A stretch of 64,000 bases of DNA, taken from sequence record OR885871; one strand, 5' to 3'. A program made the translations under genes and the position numbers. Below the pieces are notes generated by a model. It saw only the letters and a list, made by a program, of their open reading frames with translations. It was not told the origin of the DNA and ran no database searches. Within the stretch, counting starts at the first letter, position 1; the number at the start of each line of letters is the position of its first letter. The stretch is from Escherichia phage vB_EcoM_JN03. Positions 9,389 to 24,453 of the stretch are shown in pieces.

Positions 9389-10612
9389 ATGAAAGATAAA
9401 CCATATGACATCCCATATTGCGGTGTCCGTGAAACCAAAATCAAATCAGCCCATCCTATGTTAAGTTCATTCCACCGCCAGCTGGCATATGAATGGATGA
9501 GGGATCGTTATGCGATACATGTCAAGAAGGACGTGCAATGCCTTCCAGCGCCATGGACGGATAATCCGGTATTACGCCAAGTCAAGTTTTGTAACGTGCG
9601 GAGAGAGCACGATAGGCAGTCTCGAAATTTGATCAATAATATCATCCTCGATCAGGATCTCACGCTATCTGACAAAATGTTCAACTGTGTATTGTTCCGC
9701 ATGTACAACATGTGGGAACCTATACAGGCTTTGGGTGGTCCATGGACGATCGAAGAATTCGGAAACATAAATCTTGAATGGTGTCGAGATGTTCTTCAGG
9801 AATTCGAATCTAAAGGTGGCAAAGTTTTCACCAATGCGTTTAATACAGGCGGTCTGAAACAATGCCTGGCTTTCCCTGAACTAGTTGTCAACCACAAGGA
9901 GCAACGCTTTGGCGGCATGAAAGTAAAAGTCCATCGGGTTGGCGGTGTTATAGATGAAATGGATTACAAGGTTGCCAAGAAGCTGGCCGAAGATAATCCT
10001 GGTGAATACAAAATAGAAGGCTGGGAACCATACATGCCGATGCGAGTCATCCGCTCTTTGAAGGCATTCGTCAACAAACACCCTCATTACTTTGATCGCC
10101 TCAGGGAATTTAGCCGTCCCGACTCTGTTTACCAGGCGATGTATGACGACATTGAGGGGCTTGGACCATTCTTGGCATACCAGATTTGGGTTGATTTTAC
10201 ATACATCGATGAATATCCATTCAGTGAAAACCACTTCACTATCGCTGGTCCAGGTTGCCGTGCTGGTATCGATCTGTTATTTTTGGACAAGGACGGCATG
10301 ACGCATGAAGAATGCATATTCTGGGTTCGTGATCATCAAGATCAATTGTTCGCTCAGTATGGGTATAAACGTAATGAATTTTGGTCGGCAGAAGAACCGG
10401 AAGATCGTTGCATGAATGTTATGCAGCTGGAGAACATGTTCTGTGAACTTCAGAAATATACCCGCTGCGTTGAGGCGGTGATGCGCGGGGAGAAACCTCG
10501 AGGAAAGGTGGGGTATGACGGGAATGGCAGTGCGTATAAGCAACGTTGTGATGAAGTCGTCCTCAAACGTGGTTCCGTGAATCTTTTAGAACGTTTGAAG
10601 AAACCTGAATAA
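9389..10612 (+). CDS. hypothetical enzyme-sized protein, 407 aa (candidate nucleotide/base-modification enzyme)
   Basis: ATG with GAGAGGA RBS; no P-loop; no family recognisable by eye; occupies the position where T4 has DNA polymerase. Confidence 0.55.
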   Translation: MKDKPYDIPYCGVRETKIKSAHPMLSSFHRQLAYEWMRDRYAIHVKKDVQCLPAPWTDNPVLRQVKFCNVRREHDRQSRNLINNIILDQDLTLSDKMFNCVLFRMYNMWEPIQALGGPWTIEEFGNINLEWCRDVLQEFESKGGKVFTNAFNTGGLKQCLAFPELVVNHKEQRFGGMKVKVHRVGGVIDEMDYKVAKKLAEDNPGEYKIEGWEPYMPMRVIRSLKAFVNKHPHYFDRLREFSRPDSVYQAMYDDIEGLGPFLAYQIWVDFTYIDEYPFSENHFTIAGPGCRAGIDLLFLDKDGMTHEECIFWVRDHQDQLFAQYGYKRNEFWSAEEPEDRCMNVMQLENMFCELQKYTRCVEAVMRGEKPRGKVGYDGNGSAYKQRCDEVVLKRGSVNLLERLKKPE

Positions 10613-19314: not shown

Positions 19315-19764
19315 ATGTTCCTTACATCCTTTATTGACTGGATGAATATCATAAATGGTCTGAGGATCCCTGTTGGGAACCTCGGGCTTTCTCGTTCTTC
19401 TATGCCGCAAATCGATGCCGACAAACAAGAAGATTTTCACAAATATCTTGAAGACAACGGCGTGTCCATAGATGCTGCGCAAGTACCCATCAAAATGCTT
19501 CGTCTTACCCAGAACGAAATCAATAAAATGAAGGTCTGGAAGATTATGAAGCAGATCAGAAATAAGAAGCCCATGGGTCGAGTTTGGGTGTCTTCTGACA
19601 ATTACGTTGTTGACGGGTCTCACCGATTTGTCGCTGCGTTGAACATGGACGGCAAACAGCGCATGAAGGTCTACAAAGTTGATTTGCCAGCGATGGAATT
19701 TGTTAAACTCGCTAAACAGTTTCAGGGTGTGCGATACAGAACGGTCAGCGATACCCGTTTCTGA
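19315..19764 (+). CDS. ParB/Srx-fold (ParB-like nuclease domain) protein
   Basis: LRLTQNEINKM...VVDGSHRFVAA resembles the ParB N-terminal DGxHR motif. Confidence 0.5.
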   Translation: MFLTSFIDWMNIINGLRIPVGNLGLSRSSMPQIDADKQEDFHKYLEDNGVSIDAAQVPIKMLRLTQNEINKMKVWKIMKQIRNKKPMGRVWVSSDNYVVDGSHRFVAALNMDGKQRMKVYKVDLPAMEFVKLAKQFQGVRYRTVSDTRF

Positions 19765-19843
19765 ATACGATAGTTTATTGAAACCCTTTACTCAACATGG
19801 TGACATCCCTATCATTTTATCCAATGAAATAAGGAGAATCACC

Positions 19844-20533
19844 ATGAAACGTTTAATCATCGGGGTTGTGCTGGCTGGTCTGGCACTTCCTGCCACCGCC
19901 AAGCTGAACTCCACAGGTGAAAAACTGTGGTCTGATCTTTCCTACTGTGCTGGGTTCTCCCAAGCTGTTGCTATAGACAAAACTGGTTCCATAGAGAACT
20001 TTGCTGAACTCTGGGCCACAGGTAACGTCACAGATGCCGTTGTAAACGCTGGTATTGAGTTTAATCGATATAAGCAAGGCGCGTTCAACCTGAAAGGATA
20101 TATGAACGACGAAGCATTTAACCGAGGAGGCATGGAGGCGAGCGATCTTATTATGACTGGTCGTATGGACACACAAGGACGAATGACCGTAAGACAGTGC
20201 CGTTCTCTCCCTTCTCCAGCATTACAAAAAGGTGTGCAGGTTGGCCGACGTCAGCTGGACCTCATCAATGATGGAAACCAATGTATCCGAGTATTTGAAT
20301 ATAGCGCTGATCAAGAATCTGATCGAAGACTGAAAAAGGAATGGCGGACTCGCGCCCTTGGCCTGAGAGCATGGCTGGTGGAAAATGATCATTATTATGA
20401 AGACCGTGTTCAGAATGGTTTGAAAGATCTTTCCACTAATTTGTCTGTCAATCTTGATGATCCCAGGCTTGCCCGTGAACTCAAGCAAACAAGAATTGAC
20501 TGTGATAATATGATGAAGGAGAACGAAAGATGA
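19844..20533 (+). CDS. secreted/periplasmic protein with signal peptide, 229 aa
   Basis: AAGGAG RBS; N-terminus MKRLIIGVVLAGLALPATA is a classic signal peptide. Confidence 0.55.
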   Translation: MKRLIIGVVLAGLALPATAKLNSTGEKLWSDLSYCAGFSQAVAIDKTGSIENFAELWATGNVTDAVVNAGIEFNRYKQGAFNLKGYMNDEAFNRGGMEASDLIMTGRMDTQGRMTVRQCRSLPSPALQKGVQVGRRQLDLINDGNQCIRVFEYSADQESDRRLKKEWRTRALGLRAWLVENDHYYEDRVQNGLKDLSTNLSVNLDDPRLARELKQTRIDCDNMMKENER

Positions 20534-20850
20534 AAATCAAAATCTTATTGTTATTCCTGTACACTTTCATGTCTTCCCAAGTATTGGCAGCTCCGGCCAG
20601 TAAGTTGAATATTTGTGCTGCTTGGTTGTCTACATATCAACAATTCCATCCGGATGATAAGGATACATCAATCCTTTTATCTGATTATGAAGGTGAATTG
20701 AAACGCCTTGATCTCTATAGTGTGGACCAGATAGAGAATGCGCTTGATTTACCCATGATGGAATCTGCTGCAGACAACAGCAAACAGACTATTAAAGATT
20801 TGACCATGTGCCGTGAAATTGCAACTAATTTCGTTGGAAATCAAAGATAG
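20530..20850 (+). CDS. small secreted protein with signal peptide, 106 aa
   Basis: ATGA overlap with the upstream gene, GAAGGAG RBS; N-terminus MKIKILLLFLYTFMSSQVLA. Confidence 0.5.
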   Translation: MKIKILLLFLYTFMSSQVLAAPASKLNICAAWLSTYQQFHPDDKDTSILLSDYEGELKRLDLYSVDQIENALDLPMMESAADNSKQTIKDLTMCREIATNFVGNQR

Positions 20851-21691: not shown

Positions 21692-21704
21692 TTCAATAAC
21701 ATTA

Positions 21705-21735
21705 GGGCGGTTATTATTAAACCGCCTTTTATTTG
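21705..21735 (+). terminator. rho-independent terminator
   Basis: GGCGGT-loop-ACCGCC hairpin followed by TTTTATTTG. Confidence 0.55.
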
Positions 21736-21748
21736 AGAGATCTATATT

Positions 21749-22417
21749 ATGAACAACAAGAGCCGTATTATCATCGGGGCTGACCAGGGTAATTTATATT
21801 TTGAAAGATCTGGTGTTGTCGCCCACGCTATCCTTCCCACTGGAATTTCCGTTTATTGTGTGGAACATCCTGACCCTGCAGTTAAACGTCTTTGCTATGT
21901 CTCCCGTGAAAATGGACTAATTGTATTGCCAGAAGGCGCGATTATGCGCGCTCGTTTTTGGCCGATCGATTTTAATTCCATGAGCAATAGGGAGATCGAC
22001 GCCCGTTTCTTCGTACATAATATGAACCGGACTCTGAAAAATGAAACTCAGAGAGTTGTTCATTTCGACAATGAAACTCATGGAGTGACGTTAGAATTCA
22101 GAACTCGTGGTGAAGCTCTTCAGGTGAAGAAATCAAGCTGGAAAACTGAAGGGACGTTCACATATGATTATGCGTTAATCGACAAATTGTGTAATCAGTT
22201 TCGCATTAGCCTGACTGCCAACGACGATTTAGGTCAGTATGTTGTATGGACAGCCCGTTCACCACATATGAACGGTATCATGATGGAGAGTGAAACTCGT
22301 AATCGCGCTGTGCTCCAACTGCTGCTGTTAGACGCGTATTCTCGCAACCCGTTGGAATATCTGTCTCGGGAACAGATTGATAACGCGCTTTCTCATTGTA
22401 ACCGTCTGGAGGTGTAA
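21749..22417 (+). CDS. hypothetical protein, 222 aa
   Basis: Long ORF with ATG start; first gene of an overlapping/coupled operon. Confidence 0.5.
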   Translation: MNNKSRIIIGADQGNLYFERSGVVAHAILPTGISVYCVEHPDPAVKRLCYVSRENGLIVLPEGAIMRARFWPIDFNSMSNREIDARFFVHNMNRTLKNETQRVVHFDNETHGVTLEFRTRGEALQVKKSSWKTEGTFTYDYALIDKLCNQFRISLTANDDLGQYVVWTARSPHMNGIMMESETRNRAVLQLLLLDAYSRNPLEYLSREQIDNALSHCNRLEV

Positions 22418-22418
22418 T

Positions 22419-22706
22419 ATGTCCGGCGTATGGTGTGATGTATTGTTGGTAAGATTTTCAAACGGGATGGATAATCAGATCATTTCATTCTTTTATCCTG
22501 TTCCCTTTTCTTCTATGGGTCTGACTGTCAAGCGCGTTCTTGACATAGAAGAAAAACTCAACACGATGCCGTATATGGCGCGACCACACGTGCTGGGTTG
22601 TGAACTGTTAAACGAAATGATGATTGACGAGAATCTTGTTGAAACAATTATCACGCGTGAACAGATGAAAACCATACTGTCTCAGGGAGAACCCCATGTC
22701 GAATAA
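22419..22706 (+). CDS. hypothetical protein, 95 aa
   Basis: GGAGGTG RBS; overlaps the next gene by 11 nt. Confidence 0.4.
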   Translation: MSGVWCDVLLVRFSNGMDNQIISFFYPVPFSSMGLTVKRVLDIEEKLNTMPYMARPHVLGCELLNEMMIDENLVETIITREQMKTILSQGEPHVE

Positions 22707-23016
22707 ACCGTTTGAACTTAAATTTCGCGTTTGGCATATTCCCCAGGTTCCTGGGATCGCTTTTCATGTTGAGGTTCCAACATTTGAAGAAGCGCAGCGC
22801 CTGAAGAATACTCTGGCTGATTACGACCTGTTTCAGTATAACAATAACATCAAGCCGGATTATTGTAATGCTTCCGGCGTTCAAATATACCAACATGATC
22901 TGACTGAAGAAGATCTAAATGATATGGGTCTGGATGATCGTTGGGTTGATATCGAAGATATTGACGAACTCAACGATTATTTTGATCATCTGCGTAGCAC
23001 AGGGTGGGAAATATGA
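22696..23016 (+). CDS. hypothetical acidic protein, 106 aa
   Basis: AGGGAG RBS; ATGA overlap with the downstream membrane-protein gene. Confidence 0.45.
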   Translation: MSNKPFELKFRVWHIPQVPGIAFHVEVPTFEEAQRLKNTLADYDLFQYNNNIKPDYCNASGVQIYQHDLTEEDLNDMGLDDRWVDIEDIDELNDYFDHLRSTGWEI

Positions 23017-23222
23017 TCGGGTTAATCCGTTATCTGTTCATATTCGTAATTTCAACATTCATTTTATTTTTCTTTTTCAAATACTTGAAAGAGACTAAAA
23101 TCTACCGAAGTAAACGTTGGCGTAAACGGGTGAGGGTAACTTTCCTGCTGCTGATTTCTTCGGTTACAATAACTGCACTCACATTGGGTGCTTATATTTA
23201 CATTTTTGAAGGAGTACATTGA
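23013..23222 (+). CDS. small two-helix membrane protein (NfeD-like partner candidate), 69 aa
   Basis: Two hydrophobic segments separated by a basic loop (RSKRWRKRVR); TGATG coupling to the SPFH gene. Confidence 0.5.
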   Translation: MIGLIRYLFIFVISTFILFFFFKYLKETKIYRSKRWRKRVRVTFLLLISSVTITALTLGAYIYIFEGVH

Positions 23223-24013
23223 TGTTCAAGAAACTGGTATTTGGCGCAATTATGGTCCTAGCAGCAAGCATTCTTTCGGGCTGCGGCGGTGTTATCGATG
23301 AAGGAAACGTCGGTGTTCGAACCCAATGGGGTGAAGTGGACATGAACCCTGTAACCGCAGGTATCTACACCAGTTTCGTTTCAAGTGTAGATGTCTATAC
23401 GACTAAAGAAGCCGTCGTGAGTCTGACGAAAATGACGCCAAAGGCCAAAGACAACCTGACCTTGGAAGATCTGGATGTGGATGTTTATTACACACCGAAC
23501 GTCGCAAAGGTTCCGTGGTTCCATACCAAATTTGCAGGTCAGAGCGCTGAACTCGGTGACGGCACGATAGCGGTGGGATTCAACCTGGTTAAAACCGCCG
23601 CAGCATCCTCAACGATGGACGCCGTTTCCTCTTTGGATTCTATGACAATTCACACCCAACGGGCTGAGTTAGAAAAGATGATCAAGGAACGCACCCAGCA
23701 GCAATTGGAAACTGCTGCGCCTGGCATGTTCACAATCACACGTGTGTTGGTGAAAAAGGCGCTGACAGATCCTTCGATTGAGCAATCTATCCGTGATAAT
23801 GTCATGGCCGACAAACGTTTGGATACAGCAAGAAAGAACGTTGAAATTCGCGACCAAGAAGCCAGGGCGAATCAGAAACTGACGACATCTCTGACACCTG
23901 AATATTTACAACACGAATATAACATGGTGTTGCAATCTTGCGCCAACAGCGGGAAATGTACTCTGATTGTTGATGGTTCTGGCTCAAGTAAAATGCTAAA
24001 CGTCGGCAAATAA
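23222..24013 (+). CDS. SPFH/Band-7 (stomatin/prohibitin-like) lipoprotein
   Basis: Signal peptide with lipobox LSGCGG, then GNVGVRTQWGEV and a coiled region typical of the SPFH family. Confidence 0.6.
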   Translation: MFKKLVFGAIMVLAASILSGCGGVIDEGNVGVRTQWGEVDMNPVTAGIYTSFVSSVDVYTTKEAVVSLTKMTPKAKDNLTLEDLDVDVYYTPNVAKVPWFHTKFAGQSAELGDGTIAVGFNLVKTAAASSTMDAVSSLDSMTIHTQRAELEKMIKERTQQQLETAAPGMFTITRVLVKKALTDPSIEQSIRDNVMADKRLDTARKNVEIRDQEARANQKLTTSLTPEYLQHEYNMVLQSCANSGKCTLIVDGSGSSKMLNVGK

Positions 24014-24375: not shown

Positions 24376-24424
24376 TCACATCCAGAGCGGTCGCGCCTAG
24401 CACAGCGTGTTAGGCTAAAAGAGA

Positions 24425-24453
24425 AAGCCGAGGTTAATGCCTCGGCTTTTTCG
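24425..24453 (+). terminator. rho-independent terminator
   Basis: AAGCCGAGG-ttaatg-CCTCGGCTT hairpin followed by TTTTCG. Confidence 0.6.

Follow-up and report, generated by a model that had tools for sequence, protein, structure and literature searches.

A phage-restricted gene pair of Kuttervirus encodes a predicted SPFH lipoprotein and a small helical-hairpin membrane protein

Why would a lytic phage carry a gene of the SPFH (Band 7, stomatin-like) superfamily, and does the small membrane-protein gene that overlaps its start belong to it? This question is raised by the genome of Escherichia phage vB_EcoM_JN03, of which we analysed a stretch of 64,000 nucleotides (nt) from record OR885871, hereafter the window. 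Four overlapping plus-strand genes at 22419-24013 end with a gene for a 69-residue two-helix membrane protein and a gene for a 263-residue SPFH protein. The initial annotation had given the coordinates and overlaps of these genes correctly, and the small protein and the shared TGATG at its stop are real. On balance, we think it probable that the last two genes form a phage-specific, dispensable envelope module, in which an SPFH cage and a hairpin protein would condition the envelope of the host. The elements of this pair are as follows.

23013..23222, plus strand: gene for the 69-residue helical-hairpin membrane protein (phrog_11680 by PHROG match, and hydrophobicity; homologue of CBA120 orf127A)
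23210..23214, plus strand: AGGAG Shine-Dalgarno sequence within the 3' end of the 69-residue gene, 7 nt before the ATG of the SPFH gene
23222..24013, plus strand: gene for the 263-residue predicted SPFH/Band 7 lipoprotein (PHROG 200; Pfam, PHROG and model; homologue of CBA120 orf126)

The stop codon of the first gene and the start codon of the second share one base (TGATG). Together with the position of the AGGAG sequence, this overlap suggests that the two genes are translationally coupled.

The 263-residue protein belongs to a divergent SPFH subfamily

An SPFH/Band 7 domain had been proposed for the 263-residue protein, and a hidden Markov model search bore this out. The protein matched Pfam Band_7 (PF01145) over residues 24-208 with 48.6 bits (E value 1.2e-12; gathering cut-off 23.6 bits), and it matched PHROG 200, named 'lipoprotein', with an E value of 1.7e-57. 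A search across 5.8 billion proteins returned 58 homologues; PF01145 was detected in all 57 full-length ones and not in P0049, a fragment of 209 residues. After clustering at 50%, the subfamily comprised 127 clusters at E <= 1e-30 and 567 at E <= 1e-10. No NCBIfam model of HflK/HflC or of any other SPFH family matched at E <= 1, and no PDB sequence was matched even when a profile was used, so that only fold comparison works against known structures. Because these matches are missing, the 263-residue protein is placed in a divergent subfamily of the SPFH superfamily.

A single-chain AlphaFold model, computed from an alignment of 35 homologues, reached a mean predicted local distance difference test score (pLDDT) of 86.5, mostly above 90 across the SPFH domain. 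It comprises strands at residues 21-92 and 170-182, two helices of 40 and 17 residues, and a disordered tail.

23291..23845, plus strand: SPFH (Band_7) alpha/beta domain, residues 24-208 (Pfam, model)
23771..23947, plus strand: two C-terminal helices, residues 184-223 and 226-242, matching the wall helices of SPFH cages (model, Foldseek)

Foldseek aligned the model over 230-250 columns, with E values of 1e-13 to 1e-8, to prohibitin (8rrh), erlin (9vvj) and HflK/C (9cz2, 7vhq, 7wi3), and in the same E range to stomatin (9oh9) and QmcA-YbbJ (8z5g). The Foldseek probability was 1.00 against prohibitin, erlin, HflK/C, stomatin, QmcA and flotillin. Moreover, the SPFH core could be superposed on crystal structures of the mouse stomatin SPFH domain at 2.5-2.7 Å. 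In some relatives, the first C-terminal helix is longer by an insertion of 11 residues, as would be expected of a helical wall that changes height without losing register. The membrane anchor typical of the superfamily is present in a variant form, lipobox Cys21 replacing the usual helix or hairpin.

The fold is compatible with mimicry of HflK/C, in which a periplasm-facing phage ring would enclose or compete for host FtsH or another inner-membrane protease and change how fast membrane proteins of host or phage are turned over, the hairpin serving as adaptor or decoy substrate. The domain of HflK/C is periplasmic, an orientation also predicted for the phage protein, and the fold agrees with the FtsH-HflK/C complexes 7wi3 and 9cz2. 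In one phage lineage, a Bax1-I (PF01027) gene lies about 3 kb downstream; FtsH-associated YccA of E. coli belongs to this family, which makes a link to FtsH or membrane-stress biology possible. However, this YccA-like neighbour is confined to that lineage, the NCBIfam and PDB searches gave no HflK/HflC match, a single SPFH gene stands in place of a K/C pair, and Foldseek scored HflK/C no better than prohibitin, erlin or stomatin. We regard such mimicry as unlikely.

A two-helix open reading frame accompanies the SPFH gene in phages and not in bacteria

We compared 18 lipoprotein-type loci, namely the window and 17 non-redundant divergent phage contigs (a Burkholderia-associated 111-kb contig, metagenomic phage contigs and IMG/VR) whose SPFH proteins are 35-53% identical to that of the window. 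At 17 of these loci, a two-helix open reading frame (ORF) of 55-69 residues ended no more than about 30 nt from the SPFH start, often overlapping it; at the remaining locus, the two-helix ORF lay 208 nt upstream. By chance, about 0.009 ends of such ORFs would be expected per 110-nt interval and locus, a figure that is not a literal probability, the 18 loci being related. The pairing is beyond chance, and hairpin and SPFH genes form a conserved unit.

A scan of bacteria, with one genome per species, yielded 80 loci from Beta- and Gammaproteobacteria (33-43% identity), of which 79 could be classified: 52 as helix-anchored and 27 as lipobox-type. No upstream two-helix ORF was present at 78 of the 79, including all 27 lipobox-type loci, and the single one, at a helix-anchored locus, is probably due to chance. 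Conserved neighbours were not found either, since any given neighbour family occurred at 11 loci at most. Because the closest bacterial homologues stand alone, the hairpin was not inherited along with the SPFH gene. The pair is a phage innovation, added to a stand-alone cellular SPFH gene.

The helix-anchored phage locus L029 had no upstream two-helix ORF, and no hairpin ORF was found at three further helix-anchored loci, L031-L033, two of which (L031 and L032) are flanked by bacterial housekeeping genes. The absence from these four loci, set against its presence at all lipobox-type phage loci, was the initial basis for the idea that the hairpin supplies in trans the N-terminal transmembrane helix lost in lipobox-type members. 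This idea was rejected, since the 27 lipobox-type bacterial homologues do without the ORF. For the same reason, the hairpin partner follows phage origin and not anchor type.

Some contigs showed further features of their own. In a T4-like metagenomic phage, the pair directly follows a rIIB homologue and the Bax1-I membrane-protein gene lies downstream of it (L004:4862-5827 and 9578-10270, with the equivalent in L005). On the 7-kb contig of L033, a divergently oriented gene with an AcrVA2-like Pfam match (L033:1268-2413) is located upstream of the helix-anchored SPFH homologue.

The partner is a helical hairpin with a basic loop

The 69-residue protein consists of a first transmembrane helix, a loop with 10 Lys or Arg residues, a second transmembrane helix and an 11-residue tail that contains Glu and His. 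By the positive-inside rule, the loop is predicted to be cytoplasmic and the N-terminus and tail periplasmic. A short N-terminus with one basic residue and a net-positive loop were common to the hairpin ORFs of all 18 loci. Their loops often carry W-x-x-R ahead of the second helix, an acidic residue directly follows that helix in 16 of the 18, and the C-terminal tail measures 0-11 residues. A sequence search with the 69-residue protein found three close relatives and nothing further. When a profile was made from the distant partners, with the Kuttervirus sequence excluded, the ORF of the window ranked first among 725 six-frame segments with an E value of 0.011. Because sequence reaches no further than this, the hairpin family is defined by position and architecture.

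Two 57-residue two-helix ORFs upstream of the SPFH gene (L004:5831-6004 and L005:2544-2717) were missed by the stored gene calls; it is likely that annotations commonly overlook small partners like these.

The initial annotation had likened the pair to bacterial NfeD-stomatin operons. The gene arrangement does support the likeness: the two genes are adjacent and co-oriented, and QmcA-YbbJ (8z5g) is among the fold matches of the SPFH protein, at rank 25. A true homologue of such operons would have the hairpin as a minimal NfeD that binds the SPFH protein as YbbJ binds QmcA. However, the identification of the hairpin as NfeD was rejected, since the 69-residue protein had no match to Pfam NfeD at E <= 1. 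Indeed, its two helices, loop and 11-residue tail fill all 69 residues, leaving no space for the OB-fold, so that the defining domain is contradicted. The compartments are opposite as well (the phage SPFH domain being exported by prediction, the bacterial one cytoplasmic), and the nearest homologues in bacteria stand alone, their neighbours not being conserved. Descent from an NfeD-stomatin operon is extremely improbable.

The hairpin also recalls a lysis-timing device, in which the 69-residue protein would be a holin or antiholin sequestered by the SPFH ring until lysis. Its size and two-helix layout resemble those of class II holins, SPFH cages do sequester membrane proteins, and the module follows rIIB in L004 and L005. 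The features that we could check contradict this reading: the basic residues sit in the loop between the helices, the tail of 0-11 residues is no charged cytoplasmic tail, no endolysin gene adjoins, the module is located in a replication and host-takeover region, and natural deletions are viable. We consider a lysis function very unlikely.

The SPFH domain is predicted to be exported

The N-terminus of the 263-residue protein, MFKKLVFGAIMVLAASILSGC (MFKK-LVFGAIMVLAASI-LSGC), has an n-region with 2 Lys residues, a 14-residue h-region and the lipobox L-S-G-C ending at Cys21. The proposed lipoprotein signal was thereby recovered with the pattern [LVI][ASTVI][GAS]C. Because this pattern is present and the lipobox is conserved in 46 of the 58 homologues, most of the others having an N-terminal hydrophobic helix, we call the protein a lipoprotein, in which Cys21 is predicted to open the mature form and to carry the lipid. 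In the wider family, 79 of 104 full-length cluster representatives had a lipobox.

23222..23284, plus strand: signal peptide and lipobox LSGC, with Cys21 at 23282-23284 (pattern, model)
23939..23959, plus strand: Cys pair C240-x5-C246, directly before the hydrophobic TLIV tail strand (alignment)

The C-x5-C pair occurs in 41 of 46 close lipobox-type homologues versus none of 10 helix-anchored ones; it is limited to a subclade and rare in the wider family. Such a pair fits a periplasmic disulfide between C240 and C246. Signal peptide, lipobox and conserved C-terminal Cys pair all argue for export of the SPFH domain. Moreover, distant homologues have basic residues ahead of an N-terminal helix, which would likewise place their domain outside the cytoplasm.

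Naturally occurring deletions show that the module is accessory

In Salmonella phage GG32 and in BRM 13314, a single deletion has left an in-frame fusion between codon 17 of the hairpin gene and codon 198 of the SPFH gene. In these phages (L114:2145-2701 in GG32, likewise L115 in BRM 13314), a 102-residue LysM-like gene (MISKYIVKPGDTLSSIALKLYG...) stands where the hairpin gene used to start. It is followed by an 83-residue in-frame relic made of 17 hairpin codons and the last 66 SPFH codons. The same partial match was obtained for SeHz-1. SenALZ1 (MZ375358, 118,558 bp) and selz (OL964747, 122,191 bp) keep the C-terminal SPFH fragment alone, and in 'bering' the SPFH gene is split. P0049 has the N-terminus of the orf131 homologue and the C-terminus of the SPFH protein; together with the shortened genome records, it implies a larger deletion that took out the whole five-gene block. 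Because the carriers of these deletions are viable, propagated phages, the hairpin-SPFH module is accessory, and plaques can form without it.

A close homologue, Sajous1 gp200, was detected with 3 spectra in CsCl-purified phage, where its authors allow for debris (PMC10892097). These spectra are consistent with expression and membrane association and prove neither.

A proposed mechanism and the points that weigh on it

According to the mechanism that we propose, the 263-residue product would be exported through its lipoprotein signal peptide and lipid-anchored at Cys21. Because it would be exported and anchored there, its SPFH domain would lie flat against the periplasmic face of the membrane. 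Its two C-terminal helices would drive oligomerization, most likely into a ring or dome that encloses a patch of membrane, as in HflK/C, stomatin, prohibitin, erlin and QmcA. The 69-residue hairpin would be produced just ahead of it from the same mRNA and would reside in the inner membrane, with its basic loop in the cytoplasm and few residues in the periplasm. Located in or under the SPFH assembly as a phage-specific client or adaptor, it would set the assembly on the inner membrane. The module would then condition the envelope of the infected cell rather than serve replication, assembly or lysis.

The choice of membrane is central to this mechanism. A hairpin with at most 11 periplasmic residues could reach an SPFH domain only if that domain lay on the inner membrane. 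Relatives with a helix anchor have to reside in that membrane. In the AlphaFold model, the first beta-strand begins 2-3 residues past Cys21, and there is no disordered tether. Residue +2 of the 46 lipobox-type homologues is Gly in 33, Phe in 8, Met in 3, Val in 1 and Asp in 1, and in the wider family it is mainly Gly, Thr or Ser. Seydel et al. (1999) reportedly found that, with Gly or Phe at +2, a reporter lipoprotein could be kept in the inner membrane. Three E. coli lipoproteins change their destination to the inner membrane when their disordered linker is deleted (bioRxiv 10.1101/2021.01.05.425367).

Several points weigh against the proposed mechanism. Under the canonical E. coli rule, a lipoprotein is sent to the outer membrane unless residue +2 is Asp (PMC4623201). 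The 263-residue protein, with Gly at +2 and at +3 and no Asp, is directed there by this rule, and an outer-membrane lipoprotein would be kept apart from an inner-membrane hairpin. The argument for inner-membrane retention is indirect, made from the missing tether and the linker-deletion precedent, and about half of outer-membrane lipoproteins likewise do without long linkers. Physical contact between hairpin and SPFH protein is something that we infer, and homology among the small ORFs, judged by the profile search, appears marginal. We found no literature on transcript timing in Kuttervirus, the timing of the module being deduced from its neighbours. Concerning an exclusion role, PADLOC gave no match for any of the five proteins of the block, and membership in a defence system was rejected on that result. 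The searchable literature held nothing on the function of the module or of CBA120 orf126.

In a different explanation, the two proteins would be independent envelope factors: the lipoprotein in the outer membrane and the hairpin separately in the inner membrane like T4 Imm, co-inherited and both serving exclusion. T5 Llp, Cor and T4 Imm offer comparisons for such factors. Residue +2 (Gly here; Gly, Thr, Ser or Phe across the family) speaks for it under the canonical rule (PMC4623201), and PM0222, an HflK/C-like protein from a Pasteurella multocida prophage, was found in outer-membrane vesicles, where it signals through TLR1/2 (PMC9872710). However, even very divergent phages retain a stop/start overlap or a gap of <=30 nt, which suggests stoichiometric co-production rather than mere co-inheritance. 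The lack of a tether past the lipid anchor and the helix-anchored relatives, with their inner-membrane location, also argue against it. We think it unlikely that the two factors act independently.

Superinfection exclusion or membrane protection is the role that we tentatively suggest for the module. It is preferred because the module is dispensable, is placed among early/middle-type replication and host-takeover genes, and is analogous to small phage envelope proteins that stop the entry of DNA. A more speculative and rather doubtful extension is that the pair represents a phage envelope device of a class not recognised before, namely a periplasmic cage with lipid anchors that is built on the inner membrane around a phage-made hairpin and cages a host inner-membrane component. 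Its cargo might be FtsH, a DNA-entry protein or a defence effector protein, and a ring of disulfides might lock its crown. If so, rival phages would be excluded or membrane-acting defence blunted, and a first function would be assigned to any of the many phage SPFH genes.

Gene block and genomic neighbourhood

In nucleotide comparison, 2.4 kb around the SPFH locus were 98-99% identical to about 120 Kuttervirus genomes, with Salmonella phage S117 as top match (99.3%). By this identity, we assign the window to Kuttervirus (Ackermannviridae; CBA120/ViI-like phages of Salmonella and E. coli). Two records with other host names, MN871475.1 ('Pseudomonas phage Pa-sanjiao') and OR844945.1 ('Enterococcus phage Efm 3-10', 7,937 bp), also hold 98-99% identical Kuttervirus sequence and are probably mislabelled or contaminated. 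In RefSeq CBA120, the equivalent calls are orf130, orf129, orf127 ('superinfection exclusion'), orf127A and orf126 ('lipoprotein'). The remaining features of the block are the following.

21704..21728, plus strand: terminator-like hairpin with a 9-bp stem and T-run (consensus scan only)
21749..22417, plus strand: 222-residue gene, phrog_5426, homologue of CBA120 orf130, which opens the tightly packed block (PHROG match)
22419..22706, plus strand: 95-residue gene, Pfam DUF7425 (E value 1.4e-51), homologue of orf129, first of the four overlapping genes
22696..23016, plus strand: gene for a 106-residue acidic soluble protein, Pfam GP17 (E value 1e-49), phrog_1510, homologue of orf127

The terminator-like hairpin lies between the preceding gene and the five-gene block and is the probable upstream edge of the transcription unit. 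The 222-residue gene stops 1 nt ahead of the gene at 22419; it is not part of the conserved module, because it is missing from the divergent loci. The 106-residue gene overlaps the 95-residue gene by 11 nt and is itself overlapped at ATGA by the 69-residue gene. Its GP17-family product is without a membrane segment. Both the Pfam name GP17 and the label 'superinfection exclusion' are inherited from P22 gene 17, and the mechanism behind the P22 label could not be traced in accessible papers; we did not use the name as evidence. A perfect hairpin with a 10-bp stem (AAAGCCGAGG...CCTCGGCTTT) at 24424-24449, 3' of an HU-like gene, is a possible bidirectional terminator closing the transcription unit of the module.

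Upstream neighbours encode an RNA-polymerase ADP-ribosylase and an acyl carrier protein; downstream, there follow genes for the HU-like DNA-binding protein, a helicase, RNase H, a late sigma factor and a gp46/47-like nuclease. No copy of the late-promoter motif TATAAATA occurs within 20 kb of the block, which is a weak test given 3 copies per 64 kb versus about 2 expected. Further upstream, two genes joined at ATGA (19679-20533 and 20530-20850) have signal-peptide-like N-termini (internal MKRLIIGVVLAGLALPATA... and MKIKILLLFLYTFMSSQVLAAP...). The homologue of the second is called 'Rz-like spanin' in RefSeq CBA120, and it does not look like a spanin. This region seems to be enriched in exported proteins.

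What was known before, and significance

The SPFH annotation of the 263-residue gene is not new. For T4-like phages, SPFH ORFs were reported as early as 2006 (PMC1524935), homologues of the gene were annotated as SPFH in PhiSH19 in 2011 (PMC3220722) and in Sajous1 in 2024 (PMC10892097), and the same annotation appears in GenBank and UniRef names. A fold search of BFVD likewise found the SPFH fold to be common in viral proteomes. The view that such a gene is unusual in a lytic phage was therefore overstated, since this gene has carried the SPFH/Band 7 annotation from 2011 onwards and SPFH genes occur commonly in phages and giant viruses. As late as 2026, the purpose of phage SPFH genes was termed unclear (PMC13239085). 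A phage-restricted hairpin partner, the exported orientation with its Cys pair and natural deletion of the unit were not found in the searchable literature, and the phage-specific partner appears to be undescribed so far.

Many cryo-electron microscopy structures of SPFH cages (HflK/C, stomatin, prohibitin, erlin, flotillin) have been released since 2022, and the clients of these cages are mostly unclear. A non-essential, two-gene phage version would lend itself well to experiments: its phage-specific partner is obligatory, it belongs to easily grown Salmonella and E. coli phages, and it comes with natural deletion variants in the GG32 lineage. With such a system, the effect of an SPFH assembly on a bacterial membrane could be studied, along with the reason for its presence in phages. 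If the module is only a marginal fitness factor, the gain is an improved annotation, the small ORF being real and missed by gene callers in some contigs.

Comparison with known systems

The 69-residue protein shares two helices with class II holins and differs from them by the charge in its loop, its tail of 0-11 residues and the lack of an endolysin neighbour. Two-component spanins (Rz/Rz1) combine an inner-membrane subunit that has a long periplasmic coiled coil with a small proline-rich outer-membrane lipoprotein. In the pair described here, by contrast, the hairpin would expose at most 11 periplasmic residues and the lipoprotein is an SPFH protein of 242 residues.

T4 Imm and Sp are phage proteins of the envelope that keep superinfecting DNA out. 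P22 SieA is a further small phage envelope protein that blocks incoming DNA (PMC10883804). Like these, the module consists of small, non-essential phage proteins predicted for the envelope; the analogy is functional only, as there is no relationship in sequence or fold.

QmcA-YbbJ (8z5g) and the archaeal stomatin-NfeD operons resemble the phage pair in combining an SPFH gene with a small membrane-protein gene, and in fold. The E. coli QmcA-YbbJ pair faces the cytoplasm. The phage pair differs in having no NfeD OB domain and a predicted exported SPFH domain, and the bacterial members of its own subfamily are without a partner.

HflK/HflC, the E. coli SPFH cage around FtsH (7vhq, 7wi3, 9cz2), shares with the phage protein the SPFH domain, long wall helices and a short C-terminal tail. 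The folds match over about 245-260 columns, and the phage domain is predicted to be periplasmic. Unlike HflK/HflC, the phage protein has a lipid anchor in place of an N-terminal transmembrane helix, one gene in place of the K/C pair and, in the model, shorter wall helices (40 and 17 residues), and it has no sequence-level match to HflK/HflC models.

Other phage SPFH proteins (PHROG 200; T4-like 44RR, Aeh1 and RB43; Schitoviridae GIB1; Burkholderia CSP3 orf75) are often lipoproteins, like that of the window. Compared by description, the papers on the SPFH genes of 44RR, Aeh1, RB43, GIB1 and CSP3 mention no small partner.

The nearest cellular relatives are stand-alone SPFH proteins of Methyloversatilis, Rhizobacter, Zoogloea, Steroidobacteraceae and further groups, 33-43% identical over their full length. 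These Beta- and Gammaproteobacteria proteins share the GNVGV, TPKAxDNL and TDPSIEQSI motifs with the phage SPFH protein and, as in the latter, their SPFH domain is immediately preceded by an anchor, either a lipobox or an N-terminal helix. They differ from the phage locus in standing without an upstream hairpin ORF (78 of 79) and without conserved neighbours.

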